Source of the DNA: an uncultured bacterium
GTDB lineage: Bacteria; Lernaellota; Lernaellaia; JACKCT01
Direction of reading: 5' to 3'
Assembly (NCBI GenBank): GCA_964586775.1
Contig: CAZPJD010000061.1
Location: 2,183 to 66,182 of the forward strand
Length of the DNA stretch: 64,000 nt
Both the position numbers and the translations under genes were made by a program. Shown piece after piece: positions 47,758 to 63,298 of the stretch (its first letter is position 1; the number at the start of each line of letters is the position of its first letter). Below the pieces are notes generated by a model. That model made no database searches and was not told the origin of the DNA. It was given only the letters and a program-made list of their open reading frames with translations.

Positions 47758-47912
47758 CAACCTCGAAAACTCGCCCCATTCGGGCGACCGAAGAATAGCG
47801 CCGCGGGCGCGATGCCGCAACGCGGGACGCCCGCCGCGATCGCGTGGTCGAGACCGACGGGATTCAGCCCGATCTTCGGCCCCGATCGGCGATTCCCGCG
47901 CGCGAAACGACG

Positions 47913-47941
47913 TTGACGCAACCACGCGGACTCCCTAATAT
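47913..47941 (+). promoter_or_regulatory. Sigma70-like promoter (TTGACG-N17-TAATAT) facing the HEAT/glycan operon.
   Basis: Read directly: -35 TTGACG at 47913-47918, a 17-nt spacer, and -10 TAATAT at 47936-47941. Confidence 0.45.
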
Positions 47942-48001
47942 TTTTCGGCTTTATCCTCGCGGCGGGCCTTGTCCCGCGATGACACGGGAAATGCGGCATC
48001 C

Positions 48002-50530
48002 ATGATGAAGTTTGCGGACAATGCGGATCTGCTGAACGCGCTATGCGAATTCATTCAGGCATTCGGCGGGACGCTGATCAACATTAAACGGTATCCCGAG
48101 GGCTCGACCATCGTGACGATGGCCCTCGATCGGTGCCGCCAGAACTCCGACCTGATCTTCGGGCAGGTCGAATCGTTCACCCTTACCGAGAGCGAGCGGC
48201 GCATTCTCGTCGACAACGAGCCGCTCGGCGAGAAAATCCAGGACCGGGCGTACATGCGCACCTTCGTCGATTCGATGATCGCGCGCGGTATCCGGTCGAT
48301 CACGTTTCGACGTGAGATGACGCCCGCGGAGCTTCTCGCGTTCCTCAAAGTCATGGGCGAAAAGCCCGAGGAACTGCGCCGGCGCGGGCCGCTCGACCTG
48401 CAGCTCAGCAGCGCCGACGTGGCGAATATCGTGATCGACGAAAAGGTTTTCGTCGCGCTCATCAAGGGTCAAACGGTCGCCGACATCGCCGATCTCGAAA
48501 AGCTCGAGGCGCTCGGCAAGGGCCAGCTCGACCCCTCGCAGGTCAAGGACGGGTTGTTTCTCAGCTATCTTCTGTCGAAAATCCCGGTTCAGTCGCTCAA
48601 CGTCTCCGAGGAGCGTATTGAGCAGCTCAAGGAAAAGATCGGTTACGCCAACGCGAAGAACTCCGACGACCTCGATTTCGCGCACATCGGATCGGCCATC
48701 GCGCAGTCGCTGGAGGAGTGGACCGGCGCCGACAAGGTTCCCGACGCGGGCACGCCGGAAGCGGACTCCAAGGACTCCCGACGCGCCCAGCGATACGCCG
48801 ACGAACAGGTCGATAAAATCGTTTCGAGTTTCGAGGAGATCAGCAATTCGATCCTGAATTTCAAACAGCCCGCGGTTCGCGCGAAGCTGCTCAACGACTT
48901 CTTACGTGTGGTGCTCGGTTTCAAAGAGATGACGCTCGCGAAGGTTCTGTCGTCTCGCCTCGCCGCGTCCGAGGACCTCGATCTCAAGGCGCAGATTCTT
49001 CAGAACCTGTCGCAGAAAAAGCGATCCGCGGTCATCGATCACCTGCTCCAGCGTTATCAACGCGTGTTCGACGGGCTTCGCGGCGAGGATTTTGCCGTCG
49101 ACCCCGACGAGGTGACCGAGAGCGAGGACGCGCTGAAAAAGATCTTTGTCCTCGCCAAGCGCACCGATCGCGCCGATCTCGCCGAAAAGGCCCAGCGGGC
49201 GATCGGCCTCGCGCGCGTTATCACCAAGGAGACCGCGAGCCCCGGCGGCATTCTCATTCTCAAAATGAAGCGGCTATTCAGCCGTCCGGCCGCCTTTCTC
49301 ACGCAGGACGACTTTCTCGACGATTTCGGCGAGTTCGCGAAGATCCTGTGCGAGACGAATCGCGTCGATCTCGTACGCAAAGTCCTCGAGCGCGTCGCGG
49401 CGAATTTCGCATCCGAAGAGCAGGACGCGCGGCTCGCCACGGTGCAGGCCTTCGTGCGCATCAATCAGGATCTGCTGGACCTGCGTCGCACCGATCTGGC
49501 GGGCGATGTCTACCTGCTGCTCGCCAAACAGATGAAGGTCGAAAAGGAAATGGTGGTGTTCGCGAGGATTCTCGCGTCGATCGTCGCCGATTTTCAAAAG
49601 GTGATGGCCGAAGGCGATTACGCCCTTGCGCACAACATCCTGCGTCTGCTCGGGCGGTCTCGCGACGAAGCCGAGGGTGTCGCCGCGCGCCAAATCTTTG
49701 AGCAGGCACTGGCCAAGCTGACCGCGGCAAATCTTTTGACCGACGCGATGTTCGACGCGATGGAGTCCGAGGACGAGCGCGAAAGCGAGACGGCGATCCG
49801 GCTGCTCATGAGCTTCCCCGCCGCCGACGTCATCCAGCGCGTGTTGACGCGACTCGCGGCCAGCGAAGATCGCCGCGTGCGCAAAAAGTGCCTCTCGTTC
49901 GTCACGCGTTACGGAGACAAGGCCCGCGATATCGTGACGACGCGTATTCGACCCGAGCACCCGTGGTATTTCAATCGTAACCTCATCACGCTTCTCGGCG
50001 ACGTCGGCGACGAAACCTCCGTCGCGGCGATCACGCCGTTCCTTCGTCACGAGGACGATCGGTTGCGCAAGGCCGCGATTGGCACGCTCACGCGCATCGG
50101 CGGACCGGAGGTCGGCCGCGTGCTGGCCGAGGCGTTCGACGATCAACCCATCGAGGTGCAGTCGGCGCTCGTCGGGCTATTCGGCAAGGAAAAAACCACT
50201 CACGCGGTGCCCCGATTCGTCGCGCGTCTTCGCGAAAAGACCTTTGCCGATACCAACGAGAGTCTGGCGATCGGTATGATCCACGCGCTCGGGGAGATCG
50301 GCGATCGTTCCGCCGTCGAAACGCTTCAGGGCTTTCTCAAGCGCGGTGGCCTGATGGGCATGTTCGCCAAGCAGAACGATTCCATCGTGGCCGCGTGCAT
50401 CGGCGCACTCGGCCGGCTGGGCGATGCGTCGATCAAGGATCAGCTCCGAAAATTCGTACACCACTCCAATCCCGACGTGGCCAAGGCCGCGCAACAGTCG
50501 ATTCGTCTGCTCGAGGATCAGGCGGGATAA
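48002..50530 (+). CDS. Large cytoplasmic HEAT-repeat protein (~840 aa) at the head of the glycan operon.
   Basis: No signal peptide. The C-terminal third has PBS/HEAT-like repeats (IRLLMSFPAADVIQRVLTRLAASEDRRVRKKCL, AAITPFLRHEDDRLRKAAIGTLTRIGGPEV). ATG at 48002 is preferred over TTG at 47969. Confidence 0.55.
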   Translation: MMKFADNADLLNALCEFIQAFGGTLINIKRYPEGSTIVTMALDRCRQNSDLIFGQVESFTLTESERRILVDNEPLGEKIQDRAYMRTFVDSMIARGIRSITFRREMTPAELLAFLKVMGEKPEELRRRGPLDLQLSSADVANIVIDEKVFVALIKGQTVADIADLEKLEALGKGQLDPSQVKDGLFLSYLLSKIPVQSLNVSEERIEQLKEKIGYANAKNSDDLDFAHIGSAIAQSLEEWTGADKVPDAGTPEADSKDSRRAQRYADEQVDKIVSSFEEISNSILNFKQPAVRAKLLNDFLRVVLGFKEMTLAKVLSSRLAASEDLDLKAQILQNLSQKKRSAVIDHLLQRYQRVFDGLRGEDFAVDPDEVTESEDALKKIFVLAKRTDRADLAEKAQRAIGLARVITKETASPGGILILKMKRLFSRPAAFLTQDDFLDDFGEFAKILCETNRVDLVRKVLERVAANFASEEQDARLATVQAFVRINQDLLDLRRTDLAGDVYLLLAKQMKVEKEMVVFARILASIVADFQKVMAEGDYALAHNILRLLGRSRDEAEGVAARQIFEQALAKLTAANLLTDAMFDAMESEDERESETAIRLLMSFPAADVIQRVLTRLAASEDRRVRKKCLSFVTRYGDKARDIVTTRIRPEHPWYFNRNLITLLGDVGDETSVAAITPFLRHEDDRLRKAAIGTLTRIGGPEVGRVLAEAFDDQPIEVQSALVGLFGKEKTTHAVPRFVARLREKTFADTNESLAIGMIHALGEIGDRSAVETLQGFLKRGGLMGMFAKQNDSIVAACIGALGRLGDASIKDQLRKFVHHSNPDVAKAAQQSIRLLEDQAG

Positions 50531-50535
50531 CCGTC

Positions 50536-51423
50536 ATGACGTTGTCCCTGGTCATCGCGTGTCGCGACGGCGGCGCGACGCTCGACGCGTGTTTGCGATC
50601 GGTCGCCGCGTCCACGACGCACCCGCTCGAAGTGATCGTCGCCGATGACGGGAGCGTGGATGACTCGGCCCGCATCGCTGAGAACGCGGGCGCGCGGGTG
50701 CTGCGTCTCGCGCGACGGGGCCGCGCGGCGGCTTTGAATTCCGGAATCGACGCCGCGACGGGTGACGTGATCATGTTCACCGACGCCGATTGCGTAGTAC
50801 CCGTCGGGTGGGCCGAGCGGCTCGAATCGTATCTCGCATCGGGATTCGACGGCGTGGGCGGCAACCTGCTGCCGTCCGCGTGGACCGCCGTCGAGATCGC
50901 GAAGATCCTGCGTTACCTGCACGAGTTCGAGGGCGACTTCGAGCTGACCGGCGACTACACGCGCTGGTGCCTGAACGGCAACAACATGGCGATCAAAAAG
51001 GCGGCGCTCGACGCCGTCGGCGGATTCGACGAGGGCTATCTGCACGGCGCCGATGCCGATCTGACGCGCCGCCTGCTGCGTGCCGGCTACCGTCTTCTGC
51101 GCACGCGGGATGTCACCACGACGCACCTCAAGATCGACAACCTCGCGAGCTTTCGGCGGACTTTTTACCTGCGTGGATCGGCCGTGCGTTTTTCGATGAC
51201 CGACCGCGCATTGGGCGTGCGGGACCTGCTTTCGATGCTGGTTTCACCGCTGCGGCGCGCTCTTGCCGACTATACCCGCGTCGCCGCGATGAAACGCATG
51301 TTTCCCGCGATCGAATGGAACGCCCTGCTCGCCGCGCCGATCGCGCACGCGCTGGCCGACTGGAGCGCCGCGCGCGGGCAGCGCGACTTTCATCGCCGCT
51401 TCCGCGCCGAGGGCATGCGATGA
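50536..51423 (+). CDS. Glycosyltransferase family 2.
   Basis: GT-A motifs LSLVIACRDGG, DDGSVDDS and DADCVV are present. It starts 6 nt after the HEAT gene. Confidence 0.8.
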   Translation: MTLSLVIACRDGGATLDACLRSVAASTTHPLEVIVADDGSVDDSARIAENAGARVLRLARRGRAAALNSGIDAATGDVIMFTDADCVVPVGWAERLESYLASGFDGVGGNLLPSAWTAVEIAKILRYLHEFEGDFELTGDYTRWCLNGNNMAIKKAALDAVGGFDEGYLHGADADLTRRLLRAGYRLLRTRDVTTTHLKIDNLASFRRTFYLRGSAVRFSMTDRALGVRDLLSMLVSPLRRALADYTRVAAMKRMFPAIEWNALLAAPIAHALADWSAARGQRDFHRRFRAEGMR

Positions 51424-52865
51424 GCCTCGGGCGACGCGCGGTGCGTCAGACGCTCTGGGTCGCCGGGGGAACCTACCTCAAGACCGGCGTCAACTTCCTC
51501 GCGAACATTCTTCTCATGCGTCTCATCGCGCCGGATCAGTTCGGCATCCTCGCGATGGCGATGTTCTTTCTGACGCTCGGGCGCAAGCTCGTGGGATTCG
51601 GGTTCAATCACGCGCTCGTCCATCAACAGGAGGACCTGGATCGCCACGTCCCCACGCATCTGTGGCTTAACGTCGGGCTCGGCGGTGTGGTCGCCGCGGC
51701 GGCCGTGATTGCGCGGCCCATCGTCGCCGCCAGTTACGACGCGGCCACCGCGAACGCGCTTCTGGCGCTGGCGATCTTTGGCCTGCTCGAAAACATCGGG
51801 CACACGCCGCGTTTGTTGCTCGAAAAGGAGCTGAGGTTCGATCGTCTGATTCGTCTCGACCTCGTCAACACGGTGCTCTCGAACCTCGTGGGCATCGTCT
51901 GCGCGCTCGCGGGCTGGGGGTGGACGGCGCTCGCGGCCAAGCAGATCGCGGCTTGGGCAATTCAGACCGCCGGTACTTGGCGATTACATCCGACGCTACC
52001 CGGTTGGCGACCGTGCCTGCGGTCGGCCAGGTGGTACTGGGGGTTCGGTCTGCCGATGTGGTCGGCGGGGATCGCGACGTTCATCTCGCTTCAATTCGAC
52101 GACTTTCTTGTCGGCAGTTTTTCGGGAAACGAGGCGCTCGGCTTCTACGGCCGCGCATACGCCCTCGCCAGCTTCCCCACGGTGATGGTCACGCACATCG
52201 TCGGACGCGTGGCGTTTCCGCTCTACGCGAGCGTTCAGAATGACCGCGAAGCGCTCTCGAACGCGTTCGCGCGGGTGGTGCGCGTCATCATCACACTCAC
52301 CGCTCCGGGTGTGTTGTGGCTCGCCATCTGCGCGCCGGAGCTGGTTTCGCTCGTCTTCGGGCCGAACTGGACGGGGATGATCGTCATCCTCCAACTCCTC
52401 GTGGTCTACGCGTTTCTGCGCCCCGTCTACGACAACTGCGGAGAGCTCTTCACGGCGGTCGGCCAGCCCAAAATCGCCAGCCGCATATTGATTGCGCAGG
52501 CCGTGGCCGTGCTGATCGCGTGCCCGCCCATGACGTGGGCCTTCGGCGCCAAGGGCGCGGCGATCGCGGTGGGGGTGTCTCTCGCGGTCGGCGTCGTCCG
52601 CGCATACCAGATCGTTCCAAGGTATGTTAACTTTTCCGCGACCCGGGCATTCGGTCCCGCGACCGTCGCGGCCATGGTGGGCGTCGCGGTCGCGCTGTTC
52701 GCGGCGCGTATTCTCGGCGACGCCGGCCCGGTGGCGGTCCTCGCGATGAAGACCGTCGTGTTCGTGATCGCCGACATCCTGGTTTTGTTCGCAATGGAGG
52801 GACGTCAACTGCGCGAAGACTGGCGCGAGTTTCGGGCCGCGATGACCGGCGGAGAATCGCCTTGA
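51420..52865 (+). CDS. wzx: Wzx-type oligosaccharide flippase (MOP superfamily).
   Basis: About 12-14 TM helices with a polysaccharide-biosynthesis-protein N-terminal pattern. ATGA overlap with the GT2 stop. Confidence 0.75.
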   Translation: MSLGRRAVRQTLWVAGGTYLKTGVNFLANILLMRLIAPDQFGILAMAMFFLTLGRKLVGFGFNHALVHQQEDLDRHVPTHLWLNVGLGGVVAAAAVIARPIVAASYDAATANALLALAIFGLLENIGHTPRLLLEKELRFDRLIRLDLVNTVLSNLVGIVCALAGWGWTALAAKQIAAWAIQTAGTWRLHPTLPGWRPCLRSARWYWGFGLPMWSAGIATFISLQFDDFLVGSFSGNEALGFYGRAYALASFPTVMVTHIVGRVAFPLYASVQNDREALSNAFARVVRVIITLTAPGVLWLAICAPELVSLVFGPNWTGMIVILQLLVVYAFLRPVYDNCGELFTAVGQPKIASRILIAQAVAVLIACPPMTWAFGAKGAAIAVGVSLAVGVVRAYQIVPRYVNFSATRAFGPATVAAMVGVAVALFAARILGDAGPVAVLAMKTVVFVIADILVLFAMEGRQLREDWREFRAAMTGGESP

Positions 52866-53443
52866 GAGTGCTTGACGTCGGGTGCGGGCCGAACAAGGAG
52901 CCGGGGGCGTTCGGGGTCGATCACGAGCCCTTTGCGGGCGTCGATCTGGTGCACAATCTCGACGCGCGGCCGTGGCCGATCGCGGATTCCAGCTTCGATC
53001 GCGTGAACGCGAGCCATATCGTCGAGCATGTGGACGATCTGATCGGCTTTTTCCGCGAACTGCACCGCGTCTGCGCTCCCGGCGCCGAAATCCGCATCGT
53101 GACGCCTCACTTCACCAATCGCTGCGCCTATCTCGATCCCACGCACCGCCGGTACCTGTCGGTGCGCTTCGTCGATTTTTTCGCCGATGTTCCGCCATGG
53201 TATCCCGCGAACCGGTTTGCCGTCGCCCGCAGTTATCTCGGCGAGCACCACCACAGTTACCGGCCGCTGCTCCCGGGAATGTTCGATCTGTGCGAGGTCC
53301 GCATGACCTTTGCCCGGGTATTCCGTTGGCTCGGCGTGGAGTGGCTCGCGAATCGCAAGCCGGATTTCTACGAGTTCTTTCTGGCGTATCTCGCCCCCGC
53401 CCGGGATATCATCGCGACGCTGCGCGTGCGGAAGGAGTCGTGA
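52862..53443 (+). CDS. Small class I SAM-dependent methyltransferase.
   Basis: Motif I is VLDVGCGPN. TTG start overlapping the wzx stop (TTGA). Confidence 0.7.
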   Translation: MRVLDVGCGPNKEPGAFGVDHEPFAGVDLVHNLDARPWPIADSSFDRVNASHIVEHVDDLIGFFRELHRVCAPGAEIRIVTPHFTNRCAYLDPTHRRYLSVRFVDFFADVPPWYPANRFAVARSYLGEHHHSYRPLLPGMFDLCEVRMTFARVFRWLGVEWLANRKPDFYEFFLAYLAPARDIIATLRVRKES

Positions 53444-53444
53444 C

Positions 53445-54479
53445 TTGAGCGAGCGCCGCGTCACCAAGGGCAAAGTGAAGGTGTTTTCCAACACCACGGA
53501 GCCCGGCGTGGTCGGTCAGATCAAACGCATCGCCGACTGGCGGCATCGCGAGCCCATCGAGCTTGCTGGGACGGTCGCGCGAAAGGTGTGGCGACGCGGC
53601 GACAGGTTCCGGATGCTGCCGTTCCCGCAGGCGGTGCACATCGAGATCACGAACCGCTGCAATCTGAAGTGCGTGATGTGTCCTCATCCCACGATGTCAC
53701 GCACGCAGGGTCAGATGAGCGAAGAACTGTTCCGCAAGATCGTCGACGAGATTTCCGGGCACCGGCTGCTGCTCGAAAACGTCGCGATCATGGGCCTCGG
53801 CGAGCCGATGCTGCACACCGACTTCGAACGGCTGGTGACGATCGCCGCCGAGGCCGGCGTGCCGAATCTTTACGTCAGCACCAACGGCACCGCGCTCACC
53901 GAAAAGCGCGCGCAGCGGCTGGTGGAGGATGGCGCATTGGGCCGCCTCATCATCAGCCTCGACGGCGCGACGAAGGAGACGTACGAGGCGGTGCGTATCG
54001 GCGGCAAGTTCGACCTCGTCATGGAAAACACCGTGCGCGTCCTGCGCATCAAGCGCGCGATGGGGCGGCGCAAGCCCGTTGTGACGCTGCAAATCCTGAC
54101 CATGCCGCAAACGCGCCACGAAATCGACGACTTTGTGAACCGGTGGGAGCCGGAACTCGGCGAAGGGGATGAGATTCTCATCAAGGAGGTCGACACCTTC
54201 GGCGGCCTCGTCGACGACCTACGTCTCGATGCCGAACGGGAACCCGTTCAGCGCATCCCCTGCCGCATGCTGTGGAAGGACATGTCGATCGCGTGGGATG
54301 GTCAGGTGACCGTCTGCTGCAAAGACGTGTACTACCAACTCACCGCGGGCAACGCGAATACGCAGTCGCTCGCCGAAATCTGGAACGCGCCCAAGTGGAA
54401 TGCGTATCGCCGTCTTCACATGACCGGCGAATGGGATCGCATCCATCCCTGCGACATCTGCCGCGAATGGTACGTGTGA
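53445..54479 (+). CDS. Radical SAM enzyme with a C-terminal SPASM/twitch-like Cys cluster.
   Basis: The CxxxCxxC motif CNLKCVMC is preceded by a ~65-aa N-terminal extension. The C-terminus reads CRMLW...VTVCCKD...HPCDICREW. TTG start after AAGGAG. Confidence 0.8.
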   Translation: MSERRVTKGKVKVFSNTTEPGVVGQIKRIADWRHREPIELAGTVARKVWRRGDRFRMLPFPQAVHIEITNRCNLKCVMCPHPTMSRTQGQMSEELFRKIVDEISGHRLLLENVAIMGLGEPMLHTDFERLVTIAAEAGVPNLYVSTNGTALTEKRAQRLVEDGALGRLIISLDGATKETYEAVRIGGKFDLVMENTVRVLRIKRAMGRRKPVVTLQILTMPQTRHEIDDFVNRWEPELGEGDEILIKEVDTFGGLVDDLRLDAEREPVQRIPCRMLWKDMSIAWDGQVTVCCKDVYYQLTAGNANTQSLAEIWNAPKWNAYRRLHMTGEWDRIHPCDICREWYV

Positions 54480-55684: not shown

Positions 55685-56787
55685 TCGGCCACACCTACGT
55701 GGTGGACGCGAATCGCGGCAAATGGCGCGCGCTCGCGCCGCGTTGCGAGGCGCTGCGCCTTTTCGCGCCGTCGGTCTGGCCGGAACGGGACTTTTGGACG
55801 CGCGAATGCGAACCGGCCGGGGACCTCGACGTGGTTGCGCTGCCGGCCCGGGACGCCGGGCACGCACGTCGTTGGCGATTTTCGTTCGTTAAACTGCGAG
55901 GAGAACTCTTGGCGTTTCGTCCCGACGTCTTGCACGTCGAGGCCGAGGCGGGCTCGGCGATCGCGCTGGAGGCGGCTTGGCTCTGCCGGTCCGCTCTTTT
56001 TACGCAGTTCGTGTGGGAGAATATCCCCATCGATTCCCCGTGGCGTCGAGCGCTCGCGAAATGGAACTACGCGAGAATCGATCATCTGTTTGGCGGTTCC
56101 AACGGCGCGCTGTCAGCCGCCCGTGCGGACGGATATTGCGGTGCGGCGACCGTCGTGCCGCAGGTGGGCGTCGACGTCGCCTCCGTGGATCGCACGAACG
56201 CCACCCGCGTCTTCAACGACGATCGTTTCGTCGTCGGCTTCGTCGGGCGGATGGACGCCAAGAAGGGCGTCCATGTACTGCTTGACGCGATAAGAATACT
56301 GGACGGCCAGCGCATCGGATTGGTGTTCGTCGGCGACGGGCCAGAACGCGGTATCCTTCGCGAGCGCGCGTCACGGGATGAATTGTCGGGCCAAGTGCGG
56401 TTCGTCGATCCCGTCCCGCACGATACTGTCGCGTCGTACATCAAGGGCTTCGACCTTCTCGTGTTGCCGAGTGTTTCGACGCCCGGTTGGCGCGAGCAAT
56501 TCGGGCACGTGTTGATCGAGGCGATGGCGTGCGGCGTGCCGGTGATTGGCTCGCGATGCGGAGCGATCCCCGAGGTGATCGGCGACGCGGGCGTGGTGGT
56601 GGACGAAAACGATGCGACGGCATTGGCGCGGGAAATCGCGCGTTTGATCGGCGACGCGGATGGGCGTAACAAATACGTGCTGGCAGGGCGACGTCGCGTG
56701 GAGAGCCTGTACACGGACGAAGCGGTTGCCGACGCCCTGCGTTGCGTGTGGACTTCGCTCGCGAAAGAGTCAAAACGGGATCGGTGA
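55669..56787 (+). CDS. Glycosyltransferase family 4.
   Basis: GTG is preceded by GGGAGG. Contains the EX7E-type region FGHVLIEAMACGVPVIGSRCGAIPEVI. Overlaps the upstream gene by 16 nt. Confidence 0.75.
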   Translation: MRVAVIGHTYVVDANRGKWRALAPRCEALRLFAPSVWPERDFWTRECEPAGDLDVVALPARDAGHARRWRFSFVKLRGELLAFRPDVLHVEAEAGSAIALEAAWLCRSALFTQFVWENIPIDSPWRRALAKWNYARIDHLFGGSNGALSAARADGYCGAATVVPQVGVDVASVDRTNATRVFNDDRFVVGFVGRMDAKKGVHVLLDAIRILDGQRIGLVFVGDGPERGILRERASRDELSGQVRFVDPVPHDTVASYIKGFDLLVLPSVSTPGWREQFGHVLIEAMACGVPVIGSRCGAIPEVIGDAGVVVDENDATALAREIARLIGDADGRNKYVLAGRRRVESLYTDEAVADALRCVWTSLAKESKRDR

Positions 56788-56796
56788 GTCGGCACC

Positions 56797-58281
56797 ATGA
56801 CCGAAACCACTCTCGATTCGCTGATTCGCAAGATCCAGACGCACCGCAACGCGCGCGATGTGGCCGCGGGTTTTGCGGCGTTGCTCGTGTGCTGGGCGGT
56901 GGGTCAGTCGGTGGCGCAACAGGATCTCGCCCTTCCGATCGGGCTGGCCGGCGCCGCCATCTTTGTCCTCGTCTTTTTTCGCCGCGCGTCTCTCCTGCTC
57001 CTCGCGCCGGCGGCGATGTGCGTTCCGAATATGGGCCTCGATATCCCTGGGCCGTGGGCGATCTCCATCGAAGACGCGTTCGTGATGCTGTGCTTCGCGG
57101 CGCTCGTCGCGCGCGGGATCGTCCTCGGTCGTCCGGTTTTTCCACGCGGCCTTCCGGGCATGCGCCCCATGTTCGCCTTTTGGGGCATCGCGATGCTCTC
57201 GCTCGTCAAGACGGCGACGATCTCGCGATCGAGCCTGATGCTCGTGATGAAGGACCTGATGCGCCTTTCGCTGCTCATGCTCTTCTTCGCCGTCATGGTC
57301 GATGCGATCCGCACCAAGGCGCATCTGCGAACGATCACACGCGTGCTGATCGCGCTCGCCGTGCCCATGGCTGCGGTCTCCTGGTACATCTACCTGACGA
57401 GGAGCGACTTTTTCTACACGATCCTGACGATGAAGCCCGCGTACATCTACTACAAGGGCAACATCCTGCGCATGATCTCGATCGCGGGATCGACCAGCTT
57501 CACGGGGCTTTACTACGCCGTCATCCTCGCGCTCGCGCTGAATCATCTGCCGTTCTTCCGCAACACCACCACCCGCGCCTGGGGCTACGCCATCGCCGGC
57601 CTGCTCCTCTCGTGCCTCGCGATGACCTTCAATCGCGGCACGTGGGTCGGCGTGCTCTTCGGGTATTTCCTGCTCTCGCTGGTCGGGCAACTCAATTGGC
57701 GTCGCGTGGTGGTGGCCGCGATGCTGCTCGGCGGCCTCGCGCTCATCACGAGCGCGCATTTCTTCCACCAGCTCGAGGTCGAGAACAAGCTCAACGTGCT
57801 GGTCGAGGTTTCCCGATCCTCGGGCACGACGCGCCTCGTGCGCTGGATGTCGTCGATCAACGTCATCCTCGATCAGCCGCTGCTCGGCGTCGGCTACAAC
57901 AACTACGCCTACGTTTACGGTCTGTATTCCATCGAGGAAGGCATCACGCGTCTCTACGGGTCGCCGCACAACATGTACGTCGATATCGTCACCGGCACGG
58001 GCCTCGTAGGTTTTACGGTGTTCGCGACGTGGATGTACCGGCTGTGGCGAATCCACGTCGAAAACCTGCGTGGAACGATCGACCCCGAGATGAAAATGCT
58101 CGCGGTCGGCCTTTTCCTCGCGTTCGGCATCTTTCTTGGAGCATCGGGATTCGACTCGTTCTTTTTCAAACCGCATCACACCTCGTTCATCCTGATGCTC
58201 CTCTGGGCGATGAGCACGGCTTTGTGGCGGCTAAATCGCGACGAAGACCGCAACCAAGCACGCGGCGAGGCGAAGTCGTGA
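56797..58281 (+). CDS. O-antigen ligase/polymerase family membrane protein (Wzy_C/WaaL-type).
   Basis: About 11-12 TM helices with a large periplasmic loop near the C-terminal third (the RLYGSPHNMYVDIVTGTG region, typical of Wzy_C). Confidence 0.7.
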   Translation: MTETTLDSLIRKIQTHRNARDVAAGFAALLVCWAVGQSVAQQDLALPIGLAGAAIFVLVFFRRASLLLLAPAAMCVPNMGLDIPGPWAISIEDAFVMLCFAALVARGIVLGRPVFPRGLPGMRPMFAFWGIAMLSLVKTATISRSSLMLVMKDLMRLSLLMLFFAVMVDAIRTKAHLRTITRVLIALAVPMAAVSWYIYLTRSDFFYTILTMKPAYIYYKGNILRMISIAGSTSFTGLYYAVILALALNHLPFFRNTTTRAWGYAIAGLLLSCLAMTFNRGTWVGVLFGYFLLSLVGQLNWRRVVVAAMLLGGLALITSAHFFHQLEVENKLNVLVEVSRSSGTTRLVRWMSSINVILDQPLLGVGYNNYAYVYGLYSIEEGITRLYGSPHNMYVDIVTGTGLVGFTVFATWMYRLWRIHVENLRGTIDPEMKMLAVGLFLAFGIFLGASGFDSFFFKPHHTSFILMLLWAMSTALWRLNRDEDRNQARGEAKS

Positions 58282-59282
58282 ACTCGGCGAGCCGGGAGAA
58301 CCGGTCGATTCTCGTTCACAAACCCGATCACTTGGGCGACGTGCTTTGTGCGGCGCCCGCGATCCGGCGTCTGCGCGACGCATTTCCCAACGCGCGTGTC
58401 GTCGCGTCCGCCATGTCCGGCCCGGGGCGGTTTCTGGTGGAGATGCGGCTCGCCGACGAGATTCTGGAACTGCCCGGTCCCGATTGGTGGAAGCGGCGCG
58501 GAGCGGCGGGATTTGTCGCGTCGTGCCGTCGCGTTCGTTTCGATCTGGCCGTGAATTTCCGGCATGATGCGCGCGACATTACTTCGATGGCGCTCATCGG
58601 TGCAAAGGAAGTTTGCACGTACACGCACCGACGATTCGGTTCGCGGCATTCCTTCGCGGCAGCGCCGCCTTCCGGCGACCGGGCGGAACTCCTGAACCAC
58701 CTCGCGCTCGTGCGTGCGTTAGGGATCGCGACCGATTTCGTTCCGGGCGAATTCCGAGACCGGCTCGCGCCTACCGACGTCGCGCGATTTCGACGCGACG
58801 GACGGTGGATTGCGTTCCATCCTTTCTCGCGCACGCGGGCCAAGGCGTGGCCGATCGAGCACGCGCACTCGTTTGTGCGGATGGCGATCGATCGCGGCCT
58901 TGGCGTTCGATTGATCGGCGCGCGCGAGCACGAGGGCGAATCGGAGCGGATCGGATGCGACTCCCCGTTGTGCGAGAACCTCGTTGGGCGGACCGATGTG
59001 CGCGAATTGCTTTGCTGCATCGCGGCTGCCGACGCGCTCGTTTGCGCGGACTCAGGGCCGGGTCACATTGCTCCGCTGGTCGGCACGCCGGTCGTCTCGA
59101 TCGCCAGCGGAACCAACGAGCACGCGCGCTGGGCCCCTTACGGTGCGGTCGTGCTGTCGAAACCCGTCTCATGCGCCCCATGCCATCTCGAAACGTGCCC
59201 TGTGCCCGGCCACCCGTGCATGAACGATCTCACGCCAGCCGCCGCGATGTCCGCGTTGACGCAATTGCCGGGTTTCGCATGA
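58278..59282 (+). CDS. Glycosyltransferase family 9 (heptosyltransferase-like).
   Basis: ILVHKPDHLGDVL...GPGHIAPLVGTPVVSI is the GT9 pattern. GTG start overlapping the upstream stop. The 846-aa ORF-track entry is an alternate-frame artefact. Confidence 0.75.
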   Translation: MNSASRENRSILVHKPDHLGDVLCAAPAIRRLRDAFPNARVVASAMSGPGRFLVEMRLADEILELPGPDWWKRRGAAGFVASCRRVRFDLAVNFRHDARDITSMALIGAKEVCTYTHRRFGSRHSFAAAPPSGDRAELLNHLALVRALGIATDFVPGEFRDRLAPTDVARFRRDGRWIAFHPFSRTRAKAWPIEHAHSFVRMAIDRGLGVRLIGAREHEGESERIGCDSPLCENLVGRTDVRELLCCIAAADALVCADSGPGHIAPLVGTPVVSIASGTNEHARWAPYGAVVLSKPVSCAPCHLETCPVPGHPCMNDLTPAAAMSALTQLPGFA

Positions 59283-60406
59283 CCATGCGCATCCTGCTCG
59301 ATGCCACGTGCGTGAACGACGATGCGCTCACCGGCGCGGCGCGATACGTCATCGCGCTCGTCCGCGCGCTAAGGGTCGAGCGCGGAATCGATCTTCACGT
59401 CTTCACTTTTTCGCGGCGCGCTTTTGCCGAATTTCCGGACCACGTGCGCGTATCCCGACTCGATCTCCCGCGCGTTTTGGGCCCGGTTGCGCGGGAGGCT
59501 TCACGGCGAAGATTCGTCTCGCGCGCCGCGCATAGCGGCGTCGATCTCGTCCACTACACGCTCGATCCCGCGCCGCCGATAGACGGCGTGCGATCCGTGT
59601 TGACGCTGTTCGACATGGCGCGTCGTGCGCCGAGCTTTCGCGCCGCAACGGGCGCATCGCTTCGCGCGCTCATGCGCACGCACCTGCGCTATGGCCTCGC
59701 CAAGCGAATGGACCTGCTCATCGCGACCACGCCCCATGCGGCGCGTGAAATCGCTTCGGACCTGCCATATCCGGCAGCGAAGATTCGCGTGTCGCCGATT
59801 GCGACGGATCCCGCGTTCACGCCGGGCGTTCCTGACGCGTCTGCGTTGTCCCGTCACGGGCTCGTCGCGGGCGAATACGTGCTTTTTGTCGGGCAGCTCG
59901 GGCGGCAAAAAAATGAAGACGGCTTGTTGGCCGCGTTTCGATCGGCGAAAGAGCGCAATTTGGTACCGGCGACAATGCGACTGGCACTCGCTGGTGACGA
60001 TTCGCAGGCCGCCGCGGGTACGCGGGCGGCCATTCGCAACGCGGCGAGCGTAAGCATGCTCGGCACCGTGAGCGACGACGATCTCGTTCACCTTTACCGT
60101 GGCGCGGTGTGCCTCGCACTACCGAGTTTCGTCGAGGGCTACGGGCTCCCGGTGCAGGAGGCGATGGCGTGCGGAACTCCCGCGCTCGTCTCGCGCGGGA
60201 CGTGCCTTGTCGATGTCGCGGGCGCTGGCGGCATCGCCGTCGATCCGAATAACCTCGACGGGATGCGTGACACCATCGCGAATCTCGTGAACGACCGCAA
60301 TCTGTACGAGCGGCTGTCGCGCGGGGGAATCGAGCAGTCGTCTTCGCGGACCGACGCCGAAATGGCGCGCGCACATCTGGAGGCGTACCGTGACGCACTC
60401 CGGTAG
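59279..60406 (+). CDS. Glycosyltransferase family 4.
   Basis: Contains YGLPVQEAMACGTPALVSRGTCLVDV. ATGA overlap with the upstream stop. Confidence 0.75.
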   Translation: MTMRILLDATCVNDDALTGAARYVIALVRALRVERGIDLHVFTFSRRAFAEFPDHVRVSRLDLPRVLGPVAREASRRRFVSRAAHSGVDLVHYTLDPAPPIDGVRSVLTLFDMARRAPSFRAATGASLRALMRTHLRYGLAKRMDLLIATTPHAAREIASDLPYPAAKIRVSPIATDPAFTPGVPDASALSRHGLVAGEYVLFVGQLGRQKNEDGLLAAFRSAKERNLVPATMRLALAGDDSQAAAGTRAAIRNAASVSMLGTVSDDDLVHLYRGAVCLALPSFVEGYGLPVQEAMACGTPALVSRGTCLVDVAGAGGIAVDPNNLDGMRDTIANLVNDRNLYERLSRGGIEQSSSRTDAEMARAHLEAYRDALR

Positions 60407-61451
60407 ATCCCCGCGCACGCTGGTCGTCAGTTTGCAGGGAATCGGCAACAACCTGCTCGCGTTGCCGCTCGCGTCCGCGCTGGCGCGTCGCGACGAAAGC
60501 TCCGTCTGCATGCTGGTGCGTTCGCCGCGCGTGCGCGAACTCCTGCGCATTCGGTCGGATATCGACGACGTGATCGCGCTCGACGACGAGCGAATTCGCG
60601 GTGTCGCGGGGACGGTTCGACTGCTGCGCGAACTGCGCGCGCGACGGTTCACGCGGGCCGTGCTGGCCCACCCCGCCGGTTCGCGCGCCGCCGCCCTCGT
60701 GGCCGCGGCGCGTATCGACGAGCGCGTCGCGATCGTGAGCCCGCGCATGTCGCGTGGAGCGCGTTTCCTCACGCATGGTCGGACGTACGTTCAGGGGATG
60801 CACGATCTGGAACACAACCAGTGGCTCGCCGAGATGTGCGACGCGCACATCGACCTCGCTCGCGACTGGCCGCCGCTGCGTCCTGAGCAGGGAGATGTCG
60901 AGGGCGCACGCACCTGGCTTTCCGCTCTCGGTTTCGACCCCGCCGCCCGGTACGTGGGATTTCACTCGGGCTGCGACGGCGATTTCGCCGAGAAGCGCTG
61001 GCCCGAATCGTCGTTCGCGGCGCTCGCGCGCGGGTTGCATGAAGATACGGGTCGAGCGGCCATCGTCTTCGACGGGCCGTCGGAGCTTGGTTCCGGCCGA
61101 CGCATCGCCCACCTCGCCGCATCGCCCGTCGTCGCCATGGACGGCTGGGGCGGCTTGGCGCAGGCCCTCGGGATGCTTTCTGTCTGCGACGTGTTCGTCT
61201 CCAACGATTCGGGGCTCATGAATCTCGCCGCGGCGGCCGGGGTGCCGTGCGTCGCCATCTTTGGTCCGAGCGAGGTCGCGCGAACGAGGCCCTTGGGTGG
61301 GCGTCACCGCGTGATCCACGCCAATCGCGCGTGCGTGCCCTGCTACCACCTCGGCCCGTGGAGCGGATGCATTCATCCGGCTCGCCCGTGTCTCGAAGAC
61401 GTGAGTGTCGATGTGGTGCTGCGCGCCGTGCTGGAACTGCTGCCGTCATGA
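60390..61451 (+). CDS. Glycosyltransferase family 9 (heptosyltransferase-like), second copy.
   Basis: Contains LVVSLQGIGNNLL...VSNDSGLMNLAAAAGVPCVAIFGPS. GTG is preceded by GGAGG. Confidence 0.7.
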   Translation: MTHSGRSPRTLVVSLQGIGNNLLALPLASALARRDESSVCMLVRSPRVRELLRIRSDIDDVIALDDERIRGVAGTVRLLRELRARRFTRAVLAHPAGSRAAALVAAARIDERVAIVSPRMSRGARFLTHGRTYVQGMHDLEHNQWLAEMCDAHIDLARDWPPLRPEQGDVEGARTWLSALGFDPAARYVGFHSGCDGDFAEKRWPESSFAALARGLHEDTGRAAIVFDGPSELGSGRRIAHLAASPVVAMDGWGGLAQALGMLSVCDVFVSNDSGLMNLAAAAGVPCVAIFGPSEVARTRPLGGRHRVIHANRACVPCYHLGPWSGCIHPARPCLEDVSVDVVLRAVLELLPS

Positions 61452-63298
61452 AGATTCTCTACATCGACCAGTACTACTCGAATCGACGCGGCAACTCCGG
61501 CACACGCAGCCACGAGTTCGCCCGGCGTTGGGTGCGCGATGGGCACGACGTGACGATCGTCACCACCGCGAGCGCGTATTCGCACCTCGCCGGACAGCGG
61601 CGATGGCTGCGCCGAAGCGTCGACGAGGGCATCACGGTTTGGAGCCTTCGCATCCCCTACGCGCAATCCATGGGCTACGCGCGGCGAGTCTGGTCGTTCG
61701 CGACGTTCATGGTCATGTCCACGCTGATCGGACTTCTCGTCCCGAAGCCCGACGTGGTCTTTGCCAGCAGCACGCCCCTCACCGTGGGTGTGACGGGAGC
61801 GATCGTCGCTTGGCTTCGCACGCGACCGTTCGTCTTCGAGGTTCGCGACTTGTGGCCGCGAGCGCCCATCGAGCTCGGCGCGATCCGCAACCGGTATCTC
61901 ATCCCGGCGCTCGAAGCGGTCGAGCGGTGGATCTATCGGCGGGCGGACGCCATCAACGCGCTCTCGCCGGGCATGGCGACGGGAATCATCGCCACCGGCG
62001 TCGAACCCGAGCGGGTCTCGGTCGTCTCCAATGCGTGCGACTTCGACCTGAATGCCGCGCCGCGGACGCCCCGCCCGGAAGCGAATCACCGCGTCGTCTA
62101 CGCGGGCGCGCTCGGTCCCGCCAACGACTTGGGCGATCTCATCCGCGTCGCGGGCGAGTTGCACCGACGCGGGCGGGCGGACATCGAGATCGTCATCGCG
62201 GGCGAGGGGTCGCAGGAGCCGTTGATCCGCGATCTGGTGCGACACGGTGAACTCGCCAACGTGCGTTTCGCGGGTTCGCTGCCCCGCCGCGAGGTGGGCG
62301 AGCTTCTCGCGACCGCCGACATTGCGGTCACGTGTTTTGCCCCGCTGCCCGTGCTCGCGACGAACAGCCCCAACAAGTTTTTCGATTATCTCGCGTGCGG
62401 CATTCCGCAAATCACCAACTCGCCCGGATGGCTTCGGGAGTTGCTCGAAGAGTCCGGCGCGGGCGCGTTCTGGCCGTGGGGCGACGCAGCCGCCGGCGCG
62501 GATCTCATCGAATCGCTTATCGACGACGCGCCTTGGCGCAATGTTATGTCGAAATCCGCCGCGAAGCTCGCTCAGCGTTTCGAGCGGGGCGCGCTCGCGA
62601 AGGAACTGCTGAATGTCCTGACAGGCGCAACAAAATCCCCGGTACGCGGATTATCGGTCGCATGGCAGGGCATCTTCGACCGCACTTGCGCCCTCGCGGG
62701 ACTCGCCCTGCTCTCACCCCTGCTGCTGGGTATCGCATGGATGATCCGTCGCGATGACGGCGGTCCGGTGTTCTATCGCCCGACGCGCATCGGCCTCGGC
62801 GGACAACCGTTTCGCATGTGGAAGTTCCGGACGATGACGCCCAACGCGGAAAGCTTGGGTCTCGGCCTGAATGTCGGCGAGAGCGACCCGCGCATCACGC
62901 GTGTCGGCGAGTGGCTGAGGAAGTGGTCGCTCGACGAACTCCCGCAGCTCATCAACGTCGTGACCGGCGAAATGCGTCTCGTGGGTCCCCGACCCGCCCT
63001 GCCCGGCCATGCCGAGCGTTACACGACCGAGCAGAAAGAGCGCCTGCGAGTGCGCCCGGGCCTGACCGGTTGGGCGCAGGTGAATGGACGCAACGCGCTT
63101 TCGTGGTCGCGGAAGTTGGAGTTCGACGTGTGGTACGCGCGGCATCGAAGCTTCTGGCTCGACCTGTGGATCCTGATTCGCACGGTCGGCGTGGTGGCCC
63201 GGCGCGAGGGCTTATACGAAACCGACGCGGGACTGGCGGACGATTTCAACCGGTTCGAGCCGCGCGTTCACGACGCCGCCCCGCCCGGTGGCGACTAG
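61448..63298 (+). CDS. Fusion of a GT4 glycosyltransferase with a PglC-like monotopic phosphoglycosyl transferase (Bac_transf).
   Basis: The N-terminal ~400 aa are GT4 (MKILYIDQYY...). The C-terminal ~200 aa have a reentrant hydrophobic helix (CALAGLALLSPLLLGIAWMI) and PGT motifs (GGPVFYRPTRIG, FRMWKFRTM, DELPQLINVVTGEMRLVGPRP). Confidence 0.8.
   Translation: MKILYIDQYYSNRRGNSGTRSHEFARRWVRDGHDVTIVTTASAYSHLAGQRRWLRRSVDEGITVWSLRIPYAQSMGYARRVWSFATFMVMSTLIGLLVPKPDVVFASSTPLTVGVTGAIVAWLRTRPFVFEVRDLWPRAPIELGAIRNRYLIPALEAVERWIYRRADAINALSPGMATGIIATGVEPERVSVVSNACDFDLNAAPRTPRPEANHRVVYAGALGPANDLGDLIRVAGELHRRGRADIEIVIAGEGSQEPLIRDLVRHGELANVRFAGSLPRREVGELLATADIAVTCFAPLPVLATNSPNKFFDYLACGIPQITNSPGWLRELLEESGAGAFWPWGDAAAGADLIESLIDDAPWRNVMSKSAAKLAQRFERGALAKELLNVLTGATKSPVRGLSVAWQGIFDRTCALAGLALLSPLLLGIAWMIRRDDGGPVFYRPTRIGLGGQPFRMWKFRTMTPNAESLGLGLNVGESDPRITRVGEWLRKWSLDELPQLINVVTGEMRLVGPRPALPGHAERYTTEQKERLRVRPGLTGWAQVNGRNALSWSRKLEFDVWYARHRSFWLDLWILIRTVGVVARREGLYETDAGLADDFNRFEPRVHDAAPPGGD

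Follow-up and report, generated by a model that had tools for sequence, protein, structure and literature searches.

The region from 48002 to 63298 of the 64-kb window (the whole stretch of DNA analysed here, 64,000 nucleotides long) is a genuine, compact operon devoted to the assembly of a lipid-linked surface glycan, and eleven of its twelve genes, g2-g12, form a cassette that is strictly collinear across no fewer than 19 distinct metagenomic lineages. The pathway type itself is well known; what is new here is an 11-gene cassette that stays fixed across a phylum. We read g2-g12 as an assembly line complete in itself that makes a single defined hetero-oligosaccharide, and this product would go onto lipid A(-core), the likeliest of the destinations weighed below and one to which we give slightly less than an even chance.

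Third-codon-position GC frame analysis together with the ORF lists yields 12 consecutive plus-strand genes (Table 1) whose 11 junctions all fall within -17 to +9 nt. These junctions, along with the domain content of the genes, bear out the initial annotation where it described one co-oriented, tightly coupled glycan-assembly unit running without interruption behind the candidate promoter TTGACG-N17-TAATAT. Its further statement that most genes are joined by 4-nt overlaps holds with certainty for five of the 11 junctions, where ATGA, GTGA or TTGA overlaps are unambiguous (g2/g3, g3/g4, g8/g9, g9/g10 and g11/g12), and possibly for two more, g5/g6 and g6/g7, where start choice decides between 4 nt and 13 or 16 nt, respectively; g10 and g11 overlap by 17 nt, and gaps of 5, 1 and 9 nt separate g1/g2, g4/g5 and g7/g8. 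An identical public contig spanning g1-g7 carries an independent gene call that agrees with the lengths of g2-g5 and places g6 and g7 at the earlier starts (those of Table 1); the 295-aa call for g2 is present on public contig L007. For g1, the ATG at 48002 is a more likely start than the TTG at 47969.

Table 1. Features of the operon, with positions in the window
Feature	Position	Strand	Characteristics
Candidate promoter TTGACG-N17-TAATAT	47913..47941	+	sigma-70-like; 60 nt 5' of g1 ATG
g1: cytoplasmic alpha-solenoid protein, 842 aa	48002..50530	+	N-terminal alpha/beta domain (~1-150), C-terminal HEAT repeats
g2: GT2 glycosyltransferase, 295 aa, soluble	50536..51423	+	Glycos_transf_2 92.7 bits; first cassette gene
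g3: Wzx-type MOP flippase, 481 aa	51420..52865	+	Pfam Polysacc_synt_3 210 bits
g4: small class I SAM methyltransferase, 193 aa	52862..53443	+	Pfam Methyltransf_11/23
g5: radical SAM / SPASM enzyme, 344 aa	53445..54479	+	Pfam Radical_SAM + SPASM; C72-x3-C76-x2-C79
g6: GT4, 405 aa	54467..55684 (alternative start 54476)	+	Pfam Glycos_transf_1 + Glyco_transf_4
g7: GT4, 372 aa	55669..56787 (alternative start 55681)	+	Pfam Glycos_transf_1 124 bits
g8: Wzy_C-family polytopic membrane protein, 494 aa	56797..58281	+	WaaL fold
g9: GT9, 334 aa	58278..59282	+	Pfam Glyco_transf_9 74 bits, C-terminal half
g10: GT4, 375 aa	59279..60406	+	Pfam Glycos_transf_1 86 bits
g11: GT9, 353 aa	60390..61451	+	Pfam Glyco_transf_9 84 bits; WaaF-like full length
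g12: GT4-PGT bifunctional enzyme	61448..63298	+	Bac_transf 216 bits (residues 409-584) + GT4 domains

The promoter elements, read directly, are TTGACG at 47913-47918 and TAATAT at 47936-47941 with a 17-nt spacer, within a divergent gap of ~240 nt between an FG-GAP/ASPIC lipoprotein gene on the minus strand and g1. The candidate scores 9/12 in a consensus scan based on sigma-70, which may not be the rule in the host phylum, and over 19 kb the same scan returns five promoter-like sites where 2.0 +/- 1.2 would be expected, a modest excess, with none on the plus strand past 48237. Internal terminators splitting the cluster into unrelated units, a prospect raised by the initial annotation, were not convincingly found (the 22 hits, where 15.7 +/- 4.1 would be expected, are weak and all lie within genes), nor was there a hairpin terminator 3' of g12 or a break in GC across the region.

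The lineages that carry the cassette (17 non-redundant ones plus L019 and L032) come from different samples and assemblers, span 44-70% GC and 33-94% amino-acid identity, and include Candidatus Lernaella stagnicola (phylum Lernaellota, GTDB FEN-1099); all of these organisms are uncultured. Gene order is identical in every locus long enough to display all of g2-g12, and per-gene median identities range from 38 to 56%, the methyltransferase g4 being the best conserved (median 56%). The flanks are not conserved among loci, and therefore the cassette, not its neighbourhood, is the selected unit; such rigid content and order fits a conserved glycoconjugate over a hypervariable O-antigen or capsule. 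It can hardly be credited that unrelated glycan genes came together here by chance or through an error of assembly: g1 does have a separate evolutionary history from the rest and the promoter is a consensus match, but the recurrence of the same order in so many lineages, the identical public contig, the overlapping start and stop codons and the uniform GC all speak against it, and for g2-g12 the conserved gene order effectively refutes it. Sister clades append genes for an aminotransferase (DegT), a FemAB-like acyltransferase and a methyltransferase, and one locus, L015, has a PglD-like acetyltransferase gene beside a stand-alone PGT gene, additions that together hint at an amino sugar.

The HEAT-repeat gene g1 is a clade-specific upstream neighbour and not a member of the conserved cassette, so that the twelve-gene unit originally proposed becomes one plus eleven. 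A HEAT gene precedes the cassette in 5 non-redundant loci, all of the window's clade, and is absent in the 7 other loci having sufficient upstream flank; homologues also occur without the cassette, and elsewhere the gene follows a lytic-transglycosylase gene and, in two lineages, faces a waaA/msbA/lpxB block. The g1 family is a rare one: among 1.84 billion representatives, 17 match at E<1e-30. No transmembrane segments were found in g1, Pfam HEAT_2 covers only its C-terminal part (~residues 650-840), and its AF2 model (pLDDT 81) best matches alphaRep, PP2A-A and beta-catenin in the PDB, whereas its N-terminal ~160 aa recur in proteins with cNMP_binding, PilZ and GGDEF domains. The protein is probably of scaffold or regulator type and no pathway enzyme, and its gene is probably transcribed together with the cassette in this window.

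Pfam confirms every family assignment of the initial annotation, including the two GT9 enzymes and the GT4-PGT fusion. The GT2 protein g2 carries a D-x-D motif (DAD); the flippase g3 has ~10 hydrophobic segments in a simple hydropathy scan and scores 190 bits against the NCBIfam MOP flippase model, under its cutoff of 273; and g4 is full length, its motif I (VLDVGCG) lying at the extreme N-terminus. By domain content g12 is predicted to be the initiating enzyme, a WcaI-like N-terminal GT4 fused to a C-terminal monotopic PGT (Bac_transf): it has the PGT DE dyad, the motifs LDELPQL and KFRTM and, at 415-433, a hydrophobic helix, and it reaches 272 bits against NCBIfam EPS_sugtrans (cutoff 295.6). 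The radical-SAM enzyme g5 possesses the CX3CX2C and SPASM cysteines and matches the C-terminal half only of the NCBIfam spiro-SPASM model (146 bits, cutoff 250). Among solved structures, those closest to it in sequence are BtrN (54 bits) and the cytosylglucuronate decarboxylase BlsE (41 bits), and a 43%-identical homologue lies among GT9, methyltransferase, GT4 and Wzy_C genes on an unrelated 32%-GC groundwater contig; from these relatives and surroundings we infer that g5 acts on a sugar.

For the polytopic membrane protein g8 three roles are conceivable: ligase, polymerase and O-oligosaccharyltransferase. The fold match cannot decide among them, as WaaL is the sole Wzy_C-family member among the solved-structure matches of g8; not even a profile search gives a sequence-level hit to solved WaaL, and among curated NCBIfam families IctB scores best, with 55 bits where the cutoff is 366. 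Many authentic Wzy polymerases have a Wzy_C domain, and if g8 were one of them the cassette would make the repeat unit of a polymer (an O-polysaccharide or an exo- or capsular polysaccharide, maybe with heptose), the genes for chain length, ligation and export lying elsewhere. A PGT, a Wzx, a single Wzy_C protein and several glycosyltransferases are indeed the textbook Wzx/Wzy layout, and in NCBIfam the glycosyltransferases and the PGT come closest to families of EPS type (HpsO, EpsE, EPS_sugtrans; HpsO is the top match of g7 at 196 bits, under its cutoff of 575). Yet no Wza, Wzc or Wzz was found among the scanned ORFs of the window or in the 5 cassette loci with precomputed Pfam calls, a repeat unit made by eight enzymes would be large, and the invariance of the cassette over so wide a GC range contrasts with O-antigen and capsule loci, which are typically variable; we consider a polymerase unlikely, at somewhat under one chance in four. 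As one glycan cluster kept throughout a phylum, the cassette resembles the O-glycosylation locus of Bacteroidota and the pgl locus of Campylobacter, and g8 might likewise be a PglL/TfpM-type oligosaccharyltransferase that passes the flipped oligosaccharide to periplasmic or surface proteins in a general O-glycosylation system. The PglD-like acetyltransferase beside a PglC-sized PGT in L015, the lack of polymer export genes and weak matches to an O-glycosylation flippase family, at 129 bits, and TfpM, at 27 bits, agree with this, but these two scores fall far short of their cutoffs (720 and 600, respectively), neither a target protein nor a sequon is apparent, and the fold matched by g8 is that of WaaL, which leaves general O-glycosylation improbable.

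The initial annotation had taken GT9 enzymes as a sign of a lipid A-Kdo core. Both g9 and g11 are genuine GT9 proteins, matching PF01075 only (74 and 84 bits, cutoff 22) and no competing GT-B family, a point on which that reading had been made to depend; however, both score under the NCBIfam curated cutoffs for WaaC, WaaF and WaaQ (Hep I, 37-40 bits against 185; Hep II, 63 bits for g9 and 98 for g11 against 134.6). The Asp of the GD motif in WaaF and 3TOV is retained in g9 as D21 (HLGD), and g9 orthologs conserve KPDHLGD, AKxWP and DSG. In g11, aligned to 1PSW and 3TOV, it is replaced by Asn20, an Asn in 20/20 orthologs, so g11 may not work like WaaC or WaaF; its orthologs show SLQGIGN (17/20) and keep NDSG and EKRW (EKRY in three). 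From conserved nucleotide-sugar-binding residues, both enzymes probably use an ADP-activated donor and add heptose or a related sugar. The acceptor is another matter: in Helicobacter pylori, HP1283, which CAZy places in GT-9, serves as heptan transferase of a WecA/Wzk/WaaL O-antigen pathway (PMC6892558), and, by analogy with this action on a glycan built on Und-PP, GT9 membership is not a safe premise for a lipid A-Kdo acceptor.

The surroundings of the cassette bear on the same question. The window contains a BamB gene and relatives have LptD, which indicate a diderm. A convergent lptD lies directly downstream of the cassette in 3 loci (L015, L016 and L018), equivalent to ~2 independent lineages only, L016 and L018 being related and from one sample, and a 90-aa marker gene establishes synteny between the locus and a region of relatives that holds waaA-msbA-lpxB-lpxI-lpxA. 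ADP-heptose genes, waaA and lpx genes are missing from the window, heptose-pathway and Kdo genes from the window and every cassette flank examined, and the remark that the cluster lacks nucleotide-sugar synthesis genes proved correct and extends to the scanned ORFs of the 64-kb window. The initial annotation had divided the work between two acceptors, the GT9s with or without some GT4s building a heptose core on lipid A-Kdo while the PGT, the other glycosyltransferases and Wzx make a single Und-linked unit that g8, as WaaL, ligates once to give a semi-rough, LOS-like product. The E. coli hldD-waaF-waaC-waaL operon has a layout similar to g8-g11, where the Wzy_C gene adjoins the GT9 genes; g11 can be aligned with WaaF from end to end, the fold of g8 is that of WaaL, the strict conservation suits a core oligosaccharide, and both lptD and the waaA block are consistent with the proposal. 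Against it stand the subthreshold Hep I, II and III scores, the Asn of g11, the action of GT9 enzymes on Und-PP-built O-antigen too, the missing heptose and Kdo genes and the lack of any sign of two separate acceptors, and we regard this division of labour as doubtful, about one chance in six.

The single assembly line that we prefer is tied to LPS by modest support, namely the WaaL fold of g8, lptD 3' of the cassette in three loci and the absence of Wza, Wzc and Wzz from the ORFs and loci scanned. We infer its order of steps, sugars and final acceptor as follows. The monotopic PGT domain of g12 would transfer a sugar-1-phosphate to undecaprenyl phosphate at the cytoplasmic face and the fused GT4 domain would attach the next sugar; the GT4s g6, g7 and g10, the GT2 g2 and the GT9s g9 and g11 would then extend the chain to a unit of ~8 residues, with sugar modification by the methyltransferase g4 and the BtrN/BlsE-like g5. 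Wzx (g3) would flip the finished unit, g8 would complete the product in the periplasm, and its transfer onto lipid A(-core) would create a conserved short outer region of LPS for subsequent Lpt export.

The cassette can be compared with several known systems. Like the Wzx/Wzy clusters (Salmonella rfb; E. coli colanic acid, with WcaJ, WcaI, WcaL and WzxC), it joins a Bac_transf PGT, a MOP Wzx, GT2 and GT4 enzymes and one Wzy_C protein in one operon; unlike them, it has neither Wzz, Wzc or Wza nearby nor nucleotide-sugar genes, it includes two GT9s and a radical-SAM/SPASM enzyme, its PGT is small, monotopic and GT4-fused, and its order is fixed across the phylum where theirs varies from strain to strain. 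With the enterobacterial waa operons (waaF, waaC, waaL) it shares GT9 genes adjoining a WaaL-fold gene, GT4 core-type transferases and conservation within the lineage, but its GT9s fall below the equivalog cutoffs, with Asn for the WaaF GD Asp in g11, and it carries its own PGT and Wzx and no hldD, hldE or gmhA. The H. pylori O-antigen pathway likewise has a GT9 acting on an Und-PP-built glycan, which WaaL there ligates a single time after flipping (PMC6892558), whereas its genes are scattered, a polytopic WecA initiates, the ABC-type Wzk flips and no radical-SAM enzyme takes part. As regards single enzymes, g5 shares the CX3CX2C core with BtrN and BlsE and itself has an auxiliary-cluster SPASM domain, though identity is low, the match is limited to the radical-SAM core and the SPASM domain of g5 is full, and g12 resembles the BiPGT class of the Imperiali group, in which a monoPGT core is fused to a glycosyltransferase domain (PMC11257628), except that in L015 its two domains are separate, unfused genes.

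The twelve consecutive plus-strand genes that the initial annotation read as one glycan-assembly operon, from 48002 to 63298 (g1 to g12; see the table), are borne out by third-codon-position GC frame analysis and ORF lists, and Pfam confirms every domain assigned to them. Distances at their junctions range from -17 to +9 nt, with 4-nt ATGA, GTGA or TTGA overlaps at five unambiguous junctions and possibly at two more, and Shine-Dalgarno-like GGAG/GAGG motifs lie 5' of several gene starts. Independent gene calls on an identical public contig (Logan SRR13076506, found via g3) give the same lengths for g2 to g5 and start g6 (54467) and g7 (55669) slightly earlier; an exact-sequence look-up of g8 gave no match. 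The TTGACG-N17-TAATAT site upstream of the run is present as first described when the sequence is read directly, and a consensus scan over 19 kb returned five promoter-like sites against 2.0 +/- 1.2 in shuffles, with none on the plus strand beyond 48237. GC content is about 65% in the window, without a compositional break across the region, and the 22 terminator-like matches (15.7 +/- 4.1 expected) are weak and all lie inside genes, a count barely above expectation that gives little ground for splitting the run into unrelated units. A terminator 3' of g12 was also considered and rejected, a stable hairpin being absent there (z = +1.56).

Positions and family assignments of the promoter-like site and the twelve genes of the run in the window
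Feature	Position	Strand	Assignment
promoter-like site	47913-47918 and 47936-47941	+	TTGACG, 17-nt spacer, TAATAT; direct reading and consensus scan
g1	48002-50530	+	HEAT_2, only C-terminal ~190 aa
g2	50536-51423	+	GT2
g3	51420-52865	+	Wzx, Polysacc_synt_3
g4	52862-53443	+	small class I methyltransferase
g5	53445-54479	+	Radical_SAM and SPASM
g6	54467-55684	+	GT4
g7	55669-56787	+	GT4
g8	56797-58281	+	Wzy_C
g9	58278-59282	+	Glyco_transf_9, 74 bits (cutoff 22, rival family none)
g10	59279-60406	+	GT4
g11	60390-61451	+	Glyco_transf_9, 84 bits (cutoff 22, rival family none)
g12	61448-63298	+	GT4 fused to Bac_transf

The unit that recurs across lineages comprises the eleven genes g2 to g12, hereafter the cassette. 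A scan of species-representative genomes with g8 yielded five MAG loci, four of which contain the full set of twelve genes, ordered as in the window (the contig of the fifth, L004, ends short of g1), and look-ups of distant g8 and g5 homologues together with one metagenome scan supplied further loci; all loci compared here carry numbers between L001 and L033. An extended bulk tblastn map, covering 17 non-redundant lineages together with L019 and L032, reveals that the order GT2, Wzx, methyltransferase, radical SAM/SPASM, GT4, GT4, Wzy_C, GT9, GT4, GT9, GT4(-PGT), the last element including the phosphoglycosyl transferase (PGT), is constant in every locus long enough to show it, at 33-94% identity and 44-70% locus GC. 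The flanks of these loci share no genes with those of the window. Median identity is 56% for g4, 50% for g5, g3 and g12, and lowest, at 38%, for g9. The carriers are MAGs titled 'Deltaproteobacteria bacterium' or 'Myxococcales bacterium', one title containing 'FEN-1099'; the cassette was confirmed in Candidatus Lernaella stagnicola and a g5 homologue is present in Candidatus Alcyoniella australis, both of the phylum Candidatus Lernaellota. In one locus (L002, JAOSJX010000028.1) the matches to g1, g3, g4, g5, g7, g10 and g12 are broken by frameshifts into two or three pieces, which suggests assembly indel errors or pseudogenes.

The HEAT-repeat gene g1, which had initially been counted as part of the operon, does not belong to this conserved unit: it lies 5' of the cassette only in the window's own clade (the window, L001, L002, L003 and L005/L020) and is absent upstream of it in L015-L018, L021, L024 and L032. 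Its family is rare: an indexed search returned seven full-length relatives, and an exhaustive one, at E<1e-30, 17 representatives. Distant relatives (L008, L011-L014) are preceded by a 90-aa gene and a lytic-transglycosylase (SLT) gene of about 720 aa, and in two lineages with such relatives a convergent waaA / PMT_2 / msbA / PAP2-lpxB / lpxI / lpxA block comes next and the cassette is absent. Residues 1 to about 160 form a domain without a Pfam model that recurs in HEAT proteins with cNMP-binding, PilZ or GGDEF/AAA domains; the AF2 model combines an alpha/beta head with a long solenoid, and a fold search returned generic HEAT/ARM solenoids only. Because of this clade-restricted placement, the rarity of the family, the relatives without a cassette, the partners of the N-terminal domain and the solenoid fold, we regard g1 as a neighbour of scaffold or regulator type, and one that is probably co-transcribed with the cassette in the window, since a 5-nt gap separates the two and there is no other promoter-like site. 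A basic 90-aa ORF without a Pfam match occurs in L015, L016, L018, L008, L011, L014 and L032 and marks one chromosomal neighbourhood, whether the SLT-HEAT pair or the glycan cassette comes next. A second HEAT-repeat protein of the window (324 aa; 4134-5108, plus strand) is encoded 5' of genes for a Memo/AMMECR1 fusion and a MiaB-like radical SAM protein.

As the initial annotation had noted, nucleotide-sugar synthesis genes are missing from the run; a scan of most of the larger ORFs of the window found no heptose, Kdo or nucleotide-sugar genes, only housekeeping genes, and the non-cassette ORFs scanned include thrS, pheT, EF-G, BamB, RecD2 and peptidoglycan recycling genes. A GT2 and GT4 pair beside an enoyl-CoA hydratase gene and RecD2 (13994-16284, minus strand) bears no relation to the cassette, matching g7 at only 30% identity across part of the protein. 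Upstream, a divergent gene (45289-47925, minus strand) encodes an FG-GAP / ASPIC-UnbV protein whose longest ORF overlaps the promoter-like site; its true start probably lies near 47760, because a predicted lipoprotein-type signal peptide starts about 55 codons into that ORF. Downstream, 70 nt past g12 and without an intervening terminator, lies a lipoprotein gene (63369-64000, plus strand; 'LVTGC' lipobox, lactonase/SGL-like beta-propeller repeats) that does not adjoin the cassette in other loci.

Taken together, the cassette very probably directs the assembly of an undecaprenyl diphosphate-linked oligosaccharide of about eight residues, initiated by a PGT, flipped by Wzx and bearing methyl and radical-SAM modifications. 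The initiating polyprenyl-phosphate PGT is the C-terminal domain of g12 (216 bits against Bac_transf in Pfam), a single ORF with GT4 domains at residues 18-373 and Bac_transf at 409-584, the motifs 'LDELPQL' and 'KFRTM', a 'DE' dyad and a hydrophobic helix at 415-433. The product of g3 is a MOP-family Wzx flippase (210 bits against Polysacc_synt_3 in Pfam), and the 'DAD' motif of g2 and the 'VLDVGCG' motif of g4 are intact; comparison of g4 with solved structures gave nothing informative, and none of g1 to g12 reaches the curated cutoff of an NCBIfam model. Additions to the cassette vary among lineages. In L015 separate genes encode the GT4 and PGT domains, and the locus additionally has PMT_2 and PglD-like acetyltransferase genes. 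In L005 (14718-16985) and L020 an ORF of 755 aa, whose methyltransferase domain is spermine-synthase-like, lies between g11 and g12. Nine loci (L004, L017, L021, L024-L028, L030) and L032 share a co-oriented 3' extension of a FemAB-like Acetyltransf_6 gene and a 242-aa methyltransferase gene, followed by a DegT aminotransferase wherever the flank reaches far enough; this gene content suggests an N-acylated amino sugar, and the window has none of the three.

Both g9 and g11 belong to CAZy family GT9, PF01075 being the sole family that either matches, and both conserve the donor-site Lys ('EKRW(P)' in g11, 'AKxWP' in g9) and Asp ('NDSG' in g11, 'DSG' in g9). They differ at the 'GD' Asp, whose position we take to be that of the catalytic Asp13 of WaaC: g9 keeps it (D21, 'HLGD') in all 21 of its orthologs, as 'KPDHLGD' or a close variant, whereas in g11, which can be aligned over nearly its full length to WaaF (1PSW) and a Veillonella GT9 structure (3TOV), Asn20 replaces the Asp of those two proteins in 20 of 20 orthologs ('SLQGIGN' or a close variant). 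A C-terminal four-Cys motif, CxxC...C...C, is present in both. Neither reaches an NCBIfam heptosyltransferase cutoff, g11 scoring 98.3 against 134.6 for Hep II (TIGR02195), 39.6 against 185.3 for Hep I (TIGR02193) and 52.5 against 170.2 for Hep III (TIGR02201), and g9 scoring 62.9, 37.4 and 42.6, respectively. These assignments bear on the model first proposed for the locus, in which the GT9 enzymes build a core on lipid A-Kdo and the remaining genes a single undecaprenyl-linked O-unit. Its family call holds, yet its premise that GT9 enzymes imply lipid A-Kdo core is insecure, since the H. pylori GT9 enzyme HP1283 builds a heptan within a WecA-initiated, WaaL-ligated O-antigen (PMC6892558) and lipid A-Kdo is thus not the sole acceptor type of the family; we consider such a division of labour quite improbable.

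The destination of the glycan is less firmly drawn. The AF2 model of g8, built from 35 sequences (pLDDT 80, pTM 0.84), matches the WaaL cryo-EM structure (Foldseek E 1.8e-6) far ahead of all others, and this predicted WaaL fold is accompanied by conserved periplasmic Arg and His residues, the invariant positions being R225, R280, R346, H391-N392 and D453. The link emerged by fold comparison only, single-sequence and profile searches against solved chains having given no usable match to WaaL, and the orthogroup is discrete, with bit scores dropping from 410 to 48 across an empty gap. The modelled fold places g8 in the Wzy_C family, and because WaaL is the sole member of that family among the solved-structure matches, the match would serve equally for a ligase, a polymerase or a protein O-oligosaccharyltransferase. 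We tentatively favour, at somewhat less than even confidence, transfer of the glycan onto lipid A(-core), where it would form a short and conserved outer region of the lipopolysaccharide. The reasons are that the cassette is invariant across the phylum, that the model of g8 shows the WaaL fold, that lptD adjoins the cassette in some loci (convergent and directly downstream in L015, L016 and L018), that relatives carry a lipid A block in synteny with the locus, and that chain-length and export genes are absent from the window ORFs and cassette loci scanned. A Wzy-polymerised polysaccharide, with which the fold of g8 is equally compatible, is rather unlikely: no Wzz, Wzc or Wza was found among the window ORFs scanned or in five cassette loci with precomputed Pfam calls, and such genes may lie elsewhere in the genome. 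Protein O-glycosylation would likewise accommodate the fold, and is very unlikely; g8 falls far below the curated cutoff of the O-oligosaccharyltransferase family PglL/TfpM (TfpM, 27 bits against 600). Against IctB, g8 scores 55 where the cutoff is 366. The idea that PMT_2 (ArnT-like) genes connect the cassette with lipid A was discarded, since the copies in L008 (by waaA), L015 (after the cassette) and L033 are not orthologous.

The radical SAM enzyme g5 carries the cluster C72-x3-C76-x2-C79 and the SPASM cysteines (Radical_SAM 72 bits, SPASM 52 bits in Pfam), which place it in the superfamily; it falls short of the spiro-SPASM model TIGR04321, reaching 145.6 bits where the cutoff is 250 and covering only positions 229-506, the C-terminal half, of a 510-position architecture. 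Its closest solved relatives, BtrN and the cytosylglucuronate decarboxylase BlsE, both act on carbohydrates. A 43%-identical homologue on a 32%-GC groundwater contig is flanked by GT4 and GT9 genes, and a methyltransferase, another GT4 and Wzy_C come next, at 23-31% identity to the window proteins. This recurring association with GT9, methyltransferase, GT4 and Wzy_C genes supports, at the level of gene neighbourhoods, a role for g5 as a putative sugar modifier tied to such glycans. The groundwater locus (L033, 1-18698, from metagenome ERZ909571, 32% GC) is itself a distinct glycan cluster, with two radical SAM/SPASM genes, one of them the 43%-identical homologue, three B12-binding radical SAM genes, Trm112p, an epimerase, methyltransferases, GT2, GT4, GT9, Wzy_C and two PMT_2 genes. 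The conserved 90-aa ORF was dismissed as a possible peptide substrate of g5, since this marker of the neighbourhood is missing both from the window and from the examined parts of L001-L005.

A bolder reading, to which we give little credence, is that the cassette makes the signature envelope glycan of Lernaellota, with a partly undescribed chemistry. Under one option g5 and a partner methyltransferase would generate a new modified sugar handled by the GT9 enzymes, an option supported by the recurrence of the radical SAM-GT9-methyltransferase-GT4-Wzy_C grouping in the unrelated groundwater organism; under another, the Asn-variant g11 would use a non-canonical mechanism or act as a non-catalytic partner.

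These findings provide a first testable picture of conserved surface glycan assembly in Lernaellota (GTDB FEN-1099), an uncultured candidate phylum. The fixed eleven-gene order of the cassette offers a handy genomic marker of the lineage and a compact target for heterologous expression, and the repeated occurrence of GT9 and Wzy_C genes beside a BtrN/BlsE-like radical SAM/SPASM gene points towards a sugar modification that has yet to be studied. Literature searches on Lernaellota lipopolysaccharide and on radical SAM/SPASM enzymes within O-antigen clusters found nothing relevant, and the paper describing Candidatus Lernaellota genomes mentions neither lipopolysaccharide nor O-antigen; as far as the literature found shows, the cassette, its phylum-wide conservation, the radical SAM/GT9 association and the Asn-variant GT9 are undescribed. 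The pathway type, with its PGT, glycosyltransferases, Wzx and WaaL/Wzy-type enzyme, is textbook, and our result follows this standard logic, refining annotation and overturning nothing. In the same vein, g12, with its GT4 domain fused to a monoPGT core, fits the definition that the Imperiali group gives of a bifunctional monoPGT (BiPGT), namely a monoPGT catalytic core joined to a second catalytic domain (PMC11257628).
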